22,483 nt of DNA from a virus. Its lineage: Duplodnaviria; Heunggongvirae; Uroviricota; Caudoviricetes. Shown piece after piece: positions 12,001 through 15,000 of the stretch; position 1 is the first letter of the stretch, and the number at the start of each line of letters is the position of its first letter. The stretch lies in the IMG/VR virus record IMGVR_UViG_2675903658_000006; one strand, 5' to 3'. The position numbers are program-made.

Positions 12001-15000
12001 AAATTCGGCGTGATCGTCAGCTCCATTGTGCAGCTCCCGTGCTGATGAGATAATAATTTTGTGATGTGGTTTTCATGGATTCCCCCTCACATGGCTGGTG
12101 GCCTCCCCAAAGGCTGCCAGCCCCCTTCCGAATCAACTCACTTAAATTTCGTCGCACGAATAACGTCAATTCCGTTCTCGCTATATCGAAGAGGGTGCTT
12201 ACCGTCCCTGAGCAGGACAAAACCTGACATCCCCTCAGGTAGCTGAGCCAGCTTCATCAATGAACGGTTGCGGAGAGACTTCTTATCGACCTCAATGGCA
12301 CACTGCTGGCCGTCTGATGATGTAACCAGGCAACCAATAAACCCTTTACGACCACCGCTGATGCTGATGCTGATGCTGAAATTGCGTTGCAGGTGGTATC
12401 CCTGAGACTTGATTTTTTTCTGCATCACATAATCGAAAACAACTTTGTCATCGGAGCGAATGAATTGCTCTTCCAGAAGAGCGATTAAATTTTGCTTCAG
12501 GTCTTCACTCATACTTTTTATCCATCTTGTACTAGCTTTCTGGTACAGCCGTTTTTTCAGGGGTATCCCCCTTTAGATCGAGATCTACCTAACCTATGTA
12601 CCCGTCTGTTGGAAAAGCCTGTTCCAGTGCTTCGCACTAACACACGGGCACTCCTCCCCCTCCCCTCCTCTCGTTGAATTTTCTACGTACCCTTTAACTA
12701 GTACAAAAATGCAATGAGATTTGGGATTCAGCCACCGGACACCTTTAAGCCCGGTACCAATCAGGAGCGCGATTGCGTTCCTGCCAGGGGCGGCTGAGTT
12801 GTATACCCCTGTAAAGCTCTGCCCTGATTTCTCACAAACAAGCGGAGCCTTGTGTTTGCTTCGTGCCTTGCTCTGTTCTCCTTGCGGAATGAAACAGGCT
12901 CAGCGTCAAAAGTGATTTCGTATACCTCCGCATATTTCAGGGCGACCTTCCGTCTCAGTGACGGAGGCAGCCCCTGTAACTGCTGCTGAATCCACTCTTC
13001 GTCTGCCTGGCAGTACCTAGATGGCATCTCTGTCTGAACGTAATTCTGGGACATACAAGCCCTTCACCTCTCCCGTGCGCGCTAAGCTTGGATGTGTATA
13101 TGGAATGTTCGGATCCAGATGGCAGAGAATGGCAACATCCTCCGGAACGCCCCGCGTTTTCCACTTTCCAACTCCCTGACTACCACGAGGCCTTCCTTTC
13201 TTTGGGAACCTGCGGCCAATAGCGGCATTGGTCTTAAATTGAGTTTTTAATATTTCATAAAGGGTCATTCTTTAGCCTCACACCGGATACTCTGTTATCC
13301 AAGAATGTTAAACGCGAGAATCCAAAGTATCAAGAAATTCTGTTACTTTAGTATCAGCAGCCATGAAAGGAGAAGAAAAATGAAATCTTTAGGTGAACGC
13401 CTCATCAACGCACGACAAAAAGCTGGGTTAACGCAAGATGCGTTGGCTAAAAAAGCAGGGGTCACCAGAGTTGCAATCAGTAAAGCCGAGCAAGGCCTTA
13501 CAAAAAGTTTCAACGGTGACACCCTTTTTAAAGTCGCAGCTGCACTGCAGTGTTCACCGCAGTGGCTTCAGAACGGAGATGAAAAAGATAAGCATTGGGA
13601 AAATAATGTTAAGAGCTGCCCACAGAGAGACACAGCACACTCTTACCCTGTAATTAACTGGGTTCAGGCAGGATTATTCGCAACTGCTGGTGATGACTAC
13701 AACATGTATGATCAGGATAATTGGAGGCATTCTGTAAAATACGCTGGTGAGAGGGGGTTCTGGCTGGAAGTGCACGGAGACTCAATGACTTCGCCCGTAG
13801 GAATAACATTTCCTGAAGGAATGTCGATCCTTGTCAACCCAGATAAAGAAGTTTTTTCAGGGTGTTACGTCATCGCCAGAAAAAAATCTACCAATGAAGC
13901 AACATTCAAAAAATATATTTCTGAAATGGGAAAGGCGTTTCTAAAGCCCCTTAATCCACAATATCCAATCATAGAAATGGACAATGATTGCGAAATAGTA
14001 GGTGTTGTGGTTGATGCCAGGTGGGATATTTTCTGACCAGACACAAAAAGAAACCAAAGTATCAAAAATCACTTGCCACACCTTGATACCTTAGTTACCA
14101 TGAAGCAAAGTTCGTAACTGAGGTATCATCTCATGATCAATAAAGCTACAACTCTTGACTGTCTCGAAGAACTGAAAAACCTCGGCAGCCTCATTACACT
14201 AATAGCAAAAGCAACACCAGATGCTACGCTCTCTAGCGATATAGAGTCATGCGCAGGACTGGCATGGGATATGACAAATAGCATATCCAGAAAGCTATCG
14301 TCAGCAATGCTTTTACAGAACAAAAATTCTGCAATCAACAACCGTCTTCGCACCCAACGCGAAGACTGCGGCTTAACAACAGCCGAACTCGCCAGACTGC
14401 TCGATCTCGATGAAGAAATTATCATCCAGTGGGAGAGCGGAGAGTACGAACCAACCATCAGCATGCTTATCCCTCTGGCTAATGTTCTTGGCTGTGATCC
14501 AATGTTGTTATTGACTGATGCTTATAAACAAAATCAGGAGGAAGCATAAGATGAAAATGTTCAAAGGCCTCACCAACGAACCGGAAACAGCTTTTCATCA
14601 CATTGCCGTACTGCTTGAAGCGGGGTTAATCATTTCGGCTTCCGGTGATGAAGAATGTGATGAACTTTCGGATGATATCTTTTTACTGGCACAACAATAC
14701 GCCAGAAGCGCATGCGATGCATTTAAGGAGCAAAGAACATGATAACTCCATTAAATATTCTTGAGGAAGTGGCAGCACAAATAAAAGAGAATACATCCAT
14801 GCTTGAATTTATATTTAAGAATTCGCCTGATTCAGGAGAGACAGACGATTATTTATGTTGCCTCATTCGCTCCATGAATAAAACCTGTGAAATGGCTTAC
14901 GCGTATATCGACACACTGCGCAACGAATAAAGAAAACTCAATAAACAATCACCCATAAAAACATAACGGTCTCTGGTCGGGAATTTCCACAACCTGAAAA

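Follow-up and report, generated by a model that had tools for sequence, protein, structure and literature searches.

The regulator pair SinR/SinI of Bacillus subtilis (PDB entry 1B0N) has an XRE-fold domain joined to a two-helix oligomerisation module, and a small adjacent gene is homologous to that module. In Acr-Aca operons and Acr-HTH fusions (AcrIIA1), small, fast-evolving and mostly acidic early proteins are found with a helix-turn-helix (HTH) protein in one strongly promoted operon, and effector and HTH are either separate or joined. In phage lambda, N and Ral occupy the first genes transcribed leftward beside the repressor gene. We compared with these systems three small genes, here called A, B and C, in a stretch of 22,483 nucleotides of viral DNA (Caudoviricetes, IMG/VR record IMGVR_UViG_2675903658_000006), the whole of which is called the window below. 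The window is an E. coli prophage, phiP27-like and lambdoid, integrated beside yecN/cmoA. A (14133-14549, + strand) encodes an HTH protein of 138 amino acids (aa), and B (14551-14742, +) and C (14739-14930, +) each encode a free acidic protein of 63 aa. By sequence comparison, B and C are each the free-standing form of a domain that is fused to an HTH in related phages.

The three genes lie in the same slot as N and Ral of lambda. The products are different: A is acidic and, as the initial annotation of this DNA had also remarked, has an XRE fold and lacks the arginine-rich motif, and B and C match no Pfam model, any Ral model of that library included. None of the three is a small, basic, arginine-rich protein of the N kind, with isoelectric points (pI) of 4.3-4.5, no arginine-rich stretch and no such Pfam match.

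Free and HTH-fused forms of the small acidic proteins

Reading of the open reading frames (ORFs) and the RefSeq annotation of identical prophages both gave the three + strand genes as the initial annotation had placed them, and its description of B and C as small, acidic and joined by an ATGA overlap was correct (pI 4.45 for B and 4.34 for C; A has a pI of 4.34 and a net charge of -10). B starts 1 nt past the stop codon of A, C is translationally coupled to B through the overlap, and both have a strong Shine-Dalgarno (SD) sequence (AGGAGG for B, AAGGAG for C). The ratio of nonsynonymous to synonymous substitution rates (dN/dS), measured against a 73-78% identical B/C pair of another E. coli prophage, was 0.24 for B and 0.13 for C, and therefore both are real genes under purifying selection. 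The best PHROG matches were phrog_4739 (E 1.8e-83) and phrog_4836 (E 2.9e-40) for A, phrog_4587 (E 1.6e-33) for B and phrog_6882 (E 3.1e-40) for C; phrog_4836 is labelled 'CII-like regulator' and the other three 'unknown function'.

B and C had been suspected of being paralogs that share a central SG-acidic stretch. Paralogy was not borne out, with a BLASTP E of 4.9 and hhalign probabilities of 0.3% between the two families and 0.4% between much broader alignments. The shared stretch reflects loop composition and not homology, as it falls in the modelled hairpin loop of B and in the variable central segment of the C alignment. Instead, B matched the N-terminal domain (N-domain) of P0125 (aa 9-56) at 40% identity and E 3e-9, and C matched that of P0119 (aa 1-64) at 33% identity over 64 aa and E 7e-10. 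This link came from the homologs of A; word-indexed homolog searches with B and C gave 12 and 10 clusters, respectively, all of them near-identical E. coli sequences. The N-domain of A itself showed hhalign probabilities of 0.3% against B and 3.4% against C.

A fourth N-domain type, D, showed a relationship to B by hhalign (80%, E 1.4e-5). It occurs HTH-fused, on its own as a protein of 66 aa, or as the C-terminal half of proteins of 121-134 aa, of which phiP27 L08 is an example. Grouped at 50% identity, the matches of an exhaustive HMMER search with a B/D profile formed 55 clusters, and about two thirds of these were free proteins of 60-90 aa. Most of the longer matches had the domain at the N-terminus of proteins of 120-347 aa, and those inspected carried one to three XRE HTHs. 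The members looked up came from Klebsiella, Kluyvera, Yokenella, Salmonella and E. coli. Across the B/D family the N-terminus keeps the motif MKTFKGLSLEP..A..NI and one Tyr is invariant, and this suggests a conserved partner. The B/D and C families, together with the A type called hairpin families here after their predicted fold, were limited to Enterobacteriaceae prophages, and every member was annotated as hypothetical. Free members of the B and C families have a pI of 4.3-5.9. The 121-aa forms of D (L008 4148-4513; phiP27 L08, which is L002 5087-5452; P0194) carry an N-terminal extension with the motif ADIVI.G.K(V/I)VKNR, and this motif recurs in the linker between the HTHs of the 333-aa Salmonella protein P0207 (DVVIVDGKVVKNR).

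Unsupervised clustering of the N-domains and the downstream small ORFs of 172 E. coli loci showed how the two forms are distributed. D was HTH-fused 74 times and free 127 times, B was fused 23 times and free 33 times, and C was fused 6 times and free 33 times. The A-type N-domain was HTH-fused in all 66 loci of its type and a free copy was never found. In the family alignment of A homologs the HTH core (RTQREACGLTTAELARLLDLDEEIIIQWESGEYEPTISMLIPLANVLGCDP) is nearly invariant across immunity types, the N-domains (60-90 aa) are mutually unrelated, and the tails are variable, many of them with a second HTH. N-domain family and upstream repressor cluster corresponded one to one in 170 of the 172 loci; the two exceptions are without an N-domain or without a repressor ORF upstream. 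The tail and downstream module (B|C, D, or G D) combined with every type of fused N-domain except C, which is represented by 6 loci only, so that by sequence the downstream free modules assort independently of the N-domain type. As the N-domain tracks the repressor while the downstream modules combine freely, the recombination joint is placed in the conserved HTH core.

Downstream of the repressor gene, divergent phage contigs carry three to five small ORFs that overlap one another, are of hairpin size and encode acidic proteins, with the B/D-then-C order kept, and three of these loci (L176, L181 and L182) have arrays of hairpin size without any HTH. Judged from these HTH-less arrays, it is therefore the hairpin proteins and not the HTH that are the conserved content of the slot, with the HTH fusion optional. 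Scans of genome contigs with the HTH alignment and with P0207 gave no matches, and neither did scans of viral contigs with P0222 and P0204. A second, divergent C-family paralog of 64 aa (hidden Markov model E 2.7e-8) lies two genes past the B-C pair in L172 (3968-4162). Such a paralog downstream of B-C is present in some E. coli prophages, and therefore the hairpin families are not confined to the first three genes.

The homology of B and C to A-family N-domains could also mean that they are decaying remnants of former A-family genes left by recombination. This has next to no probability and is essentially excluded, given the low dN/dS, the kept length, the strong SD sequences and the ATGA overlap, and in divergent phages the free form prevails, also in the loci without an HTH. 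On the sequence evidence, the pattern of domain shuffling is well supported as real and as previously undescribed, in phage families that are uncharacterised. Literature searches found no paper on these proteins; a lead to RgdR concerned a different element, the cryptic prophage CP-933C, and PMC4651098 was irrelevant to them.

Fused and free forms of one domain would also be expected of a module like SinR/SinI, in which A dimerises through its hairpin and regulates transcription, and the free hairpins heterodimerise with the fused hairpin of their own or a co-resident phage and so switch off or retune the regulator. The XRE fold with a helical module and small neighbours homologous to such a module match this picture, and fused and free copies of the same family occur together in 62 of the 172 loci at 26-49% identity. 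The loci without an HTH still have two adjacent B/D paralogs, and the modelled hairpin fold is typical of four-helix-bundle dimers. However, B and C of the window come from other families than the N-domain of A (see the hhalign values above), so that the window holds no small protein homologous to the regulator's own module; related loci do, as D-HTH with free D. The free modules assort independently of the fused type, arrays without an HTH exist, and the forms with two or three HTHs should need no dimerisation domain. The hairpin here is also N-terminal and not C-terminal, and the HTH of A is strongly acidic, probably too much so for ordinary operator binding. We regard a module of this kind as unlikely, although by no means negligible.

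The match between N-domain and repressor cluster in 170 of the 172 loci bears on another alternative, an immunity-linked anti-repressor or switch. Here the first hairpin would bind the cognate cI or Cro and reinforce the lytic decision, and the free hairpins would target the repressors of other immunities. B, C and D each occur as the N-domain of another immunity type, and the XRE-fold domain, being acidic, could cover a basic surface used for DNA binding. However, linkage fully explains the association, as the coding of the N-domain starts 96-177 bp past the repressor and the joint lies in the HTH core. No similarity to known anti-repressors was found, and an anti-repressor that is made from pL during infection would be a hindrance to lysogenisation. 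We give this alternative a low probability.

An acidic HTH domain and predicted alpha-hairpins

The XRE-type HTH attributed to A was confirmed by a match of aa 72-123 (14346-14501, +) to Pfam HTH_3 (E 1.6e-10, 41.3 bits against a cut-off of 23) and by structure comparison. The AlphaFold2 model of A (mean predicted local distance difference test score (pLDDT) 76.8, about 90 over aa 11-50) has helices at 2-27 and 31-78, which form an alpha-hairpin running into the HTH. The N-terminal alpha-hairpin domain of A type, as delimited by this model and the clustering, covers aa 1-66 (14133-14330, +). Foldseek with the model found generic XRE domains only, with P22 C2 and C.AhdI the best. Compared with P22-type repressors, aa 68-130 gave template modelling (TM) scores of 0.83-0.86 (normalised to the target) and 30% identity to P22 C2, and this part of A has the same fold as P22 C2, 434 and DicA-type repressors. 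The homolog of A in phi467 is annotated 'DicA'.

In contrast to P22 C2, A has an extra N-terminal hairpin and lacks an S24 or other C-terminal domain, and the two differ in charge. The XRE-fold domain of A (aa 68-130) has a net charge of -8, against +5 for P22 C2, +7 for an MBF-like domain and +6 for the repressor of the window. In the register of the alignment the recognition helix starts with D-E-E in A and with S-N-V in P22 C2, and all 54 distinct HTH cores in the A family have a net charge of -4 to -8. Because of these charges and the D-E-E at the recognition helix, A is unlikely to be an ordinary operator-binding regulator, and the electrophoretic mobility shift assay of A that the initial annotation had suggested would probably come out negative.

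These properties also set the locus apart from Acr-Aca operons. A single promoter-like site precedes A, B and C, which adjoin or overlap one another, and small genes and an HTH gene are therefore found in one operon here as well. However, the HTH gene comes first and not last, and its HTH core, which recurs in phages whose promoter regions are unrelated, probably binds DNA poorly. Autorepression by A is doubtful, since the HTH is acidic and no promoter sequence is shared.

The AlphaFold2 model of B (pLDDT 84.5) is likewise an alpha-hairpin, with helices at 11-30 and 34-62. Foldseek searches of the PDB and BFVD with this model gave no significant match. Its top neighbours were Rop and Tsi2, both insignificant (E above 2, TM 0.6-0.7); these are acidic two-helix hairpins that dimerise, but they have no sequence relationship to B, and such a match is expected for any helical hairpin. 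The PDB sequence and profile searches with the B/D and C families gave nothing credible. Homology of B and C to Ocr, ArdA or Ral, which the initial annotation had put forward for checking, was found neither in Pfam nor in the PDB sequence and profile searches, nor was there a significant Foldseek match to the B model; C was compared by sequence only. With Ocr, ArdA, T7 gp5.9 and lambda Gam the proteins share their small size and negative charge, and also an expression and a build that are here predicted to be early and to be helical and probably oligomeric, respectively. In contrast to that likeness, no sequence, profile or fold match connects them, and mimicry is a conjecture.

In both the B/D and the C family the loops are S-, D-, E- and N-rich, which would suit an N substitute directed at RNA polymerase, whose acidic-tipped hairpins would bind the polymerase and alter elongation or promoter choice. 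The genes do occupy the lambda N slot, with no N-like protein present, and the coiled coils of Gre, DksA and TraR, which hairpins of this kind would resemble, bind RNA polymerase. However, none of these three was among the 45 Foldseek matches of the B model, and a zinc-ribbon or globular domain is lacking. The + strand of the operon has only two weak terminator-like sites, and thus no strong intrinsic terminator that would have to be overridden. An N substitute is very improbable on this evidence.

The early-left slot and the surrounding prophage

A cI-like repressor gene (13380-14036, +; Pfam Peptidase_S24 E 1.3e-22, HTH_3 E 1.3e-14) lies directly 5' of A and is given in RefSeq as 'LexA family protein' with the same start. 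The 96-bp gap between this gene and A holds a putative pL/oL region (14052-14128, +). A promoter scan found a sigma-70-like site at 14073-14101 (TTGCCA, 17 nt, TACCAT), and three operator-like sites lie at 14052-14065, 14083-14098 and 14114-14128, with the core TGATAC/GTATCA at 14059, 14084 and 14123. The cI-cro gap has TGATAC as well, at 13327 and 13351, and a 20-nt repeat is common to both gaps. The pL-proximal position given in the initial annotation is supported by this promoter-like site and by the recurrence of the flanking TGATAC sites in the cI-cro gap, and the predicted arrangement is that the cassette opens the early-left (pL) operon and is transcribed first from the promoter-like site.

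The same arrangement was seen in related loci. Of the 172 loci, 170 have a long + strand ORF whose end is no more than 500 nt ahead of the A-family gene, and direct reading of loci from six A-family types gave the order S24 repressor, A-family gene, small genes; the A-family gene was the first after the repressor in every related locus examined. By eye, four other immunity types have a consensus-like -35/-10 pair and repeats of their own between the repressor and the A-family gene, and one of the four has an apparent terminator past the repressor gene. On the + strand, a scan found no terminator-like site inside the cassette; downstream of it there were only two, both of them weak (18405 and 22293).

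In the pL regions of five immunity types no common HTH binding site was seen, and each type has its own repeats. The GTATC sites are limited to the immunity type of the window, in the cI-cro and cI-A gaps. Because they are unique to this type while the HTH core of A is common to all types, they look like putative cI/Cro operators and not sites for A.

The last two operator-like sites form a 15-nt inverted repeat, and its 3' arm spans the SD sequence of A (GAGG). An inverted repeat with arms of about 10-15 nt was observed between the putative pL -10 element and the first start codon in three unrelated immunity types (14084-14128 in the window, L089 and L082), with the 3' arm over the SD sequence in the window and in L082. 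The repeat may serve as a pair of operators. Alternatively, it may fold into a hairpin that keeps transcripts reading through from the repressor gene from being translated, in which case pL transcripts, starting inside it, would stay translatable.

The position beside cI, where lambda has the exclusion genes rexAB, was one reason to consider a toxin-antitoxin-like or superinfection-exclusion module expressed from the prophage, which the initial annotation had raised. The other lay in weak matches of the A HTH to antitoxin models of HipB and MqsA type, which stayed below threshold (25.9 bits for the HipB antitoxin model against a cut-off of 71.65). However, there is no toxin-like partner, A, B and C all being small, acidic and helical, and A matched only the HTH parts of the PADLOC models RmrA, CapH and HTH_VI. 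B and C had no match in Pfam (E up to 1), NCBIfam or PADLOC. The promoter between cI and the cassette, with its operator-like sites, should moreover be repressed in a lysogen. Such a module is essentially excluded, with only a trace of probability left to it.

Past the cassette lies a conserved spacer (14931-15114, +) with a small ORF at 15013-15111 (+), which encodes 32 aa (MKNRSAYKTALLMANAGYWSVAILFLRKAYGK, ending ...FLRKAYGK) and abuts the start of the next gene. Related loci have the same spacer with a homologous ORF of 32-37 aa (...ACLFLRKAYGR) after either downstream module, B|C or D. In these relatives the ORF has its own SD sequence, with a conserved GC-rich element ahead of it (...CGCCGGGGATTGTTACAACC), and it may encode a leader peptide or represent a small gene that annotation has missed. 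A further ORF of 72 aa at 15661-15879 (+) overlaps its neighbours, and in some of the identical genomes its RefSeq name is 'ParE family toxin-like protein'. There was no NCBIfam or PADLOC match for it, and its homologs are kept in divergent loci (L175 5526-5747 and L182 5269-5439).

Positions 13000-16300 of the window were 100% identical to several E. coli chromosomes, and among 5,426 complete genomes 335 had similar sequence. The prophage adjoins yecN/cmoA in one of the identical genomes. In identical E. coli prophages RefSeq gives an S24 'LexA family' repressor followed by A, B and C at the coordinates reported here. The HTH family of A also occurs in Stx-converting phages.

This copy of the prophage has a 1,309-bp IS3-family insertion sequence at 8592-9900 with orfA and orfB (9521-9847 and 8634-9524, both on the - strand) and a frameshift pseudoknot. 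The Rfam ALIL pseudoknot match (9450-9566) lies within this insertion and was rejected as a phage element. The insertion splits the phage toprim/primase gene, remnants of which lie on either side (about 8085-8591 and 9901-10366), and it is missing from the otherwise 99.9% identical prophage L003; for these reasons the present copy is probably replication-defective. The interval from the Q antiterminator to lysis, which is the position of stx in Stx phages, is occupied by AB5-type toxin cargo. The two genes, at about 5364-5789 and 5922-6650 (-; mapped from L003 7672-8097 and 8230-8958), are labelled 'subtilase family AB5 toxin binding subunit' and 'scabin-related ADP-ribosyltransferase' in RefSeq.

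Possible roles of the hairpin proteins

We tentatively favour, with somewhat less than even confidence, the reading that the hairpin proteins are acidic effectors, made early and oligomeric, that bind other proteins and serve counter-defence or host takeover. Judged from their position, A, B and C would be made immediately on induction or infection. The hairpins would probably act as homo- or hetero-oligomeric helical bundles, because two-helix hairpins rarely fold alone, and would probably bind proteins of the host or of competing phages, perhaps at the surfaces with which these targets bind nucleic acids. Where the hairpin is fused, the XRE-fold domain would add a second binding or tethering function, and its charge makes a role as a classical operator-binding repressor unlikely. 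An anti-defence role is possible and would fit the free/fused context.

Several observations weigh against these effector roles. No homology found in Pfam, NCBIfam, PADLOC or the PDB links the proteins to a known counter-defence or host-takeover protein, Acr and Aca proteins included, and the alpha-hairpin is a generic fold for which the Foldseek matches were insignificant. In 51 loci D-HTH and free D occur together (42-49% identity), as do B-type HTH and free B in a further 11 (26-30%), and such same-family fused and free copies at one locus would fit a model of regulator and partner equally well. Some fused forms from outside E. coli (P0203 and P0204) have ordinary-looking recognition helices, and DNA binding may be important in part of the A family.

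A broader claim, that the hairpins shuffled through the pL-proximal slot of these N-less lambdoid phages of enterobacteria, either free or tethered to an acidic pseudo-repressor, are an unrecognised class of immediate-early inhibitors, appears rather unlikely at present. It comes in two versions: anti-defence mimicry acting on DNA-binding proteins of the host, or weapons between phages that poison the hairpin proteins of co-resident prophages.

The lambdoid prophages of pathogenic E. coli, including Stx-converting ones, spend the first genes of the early operon on proteins that are all annotated as hypothetical. The free/fused pattern defines three or more domain families among them and separates the immunity-linked parts from a module that travels separately. 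It also predicts that the hairpins oligomerise and that the apparent regulator is not an ordinary operator binder. If the proteins do act in counter-defence or between prophages, they would help to explain host range and the competition of prophages in strains with multiple lambdoid prophages, and they would provide a new scaffold for small-protein inhibitors.

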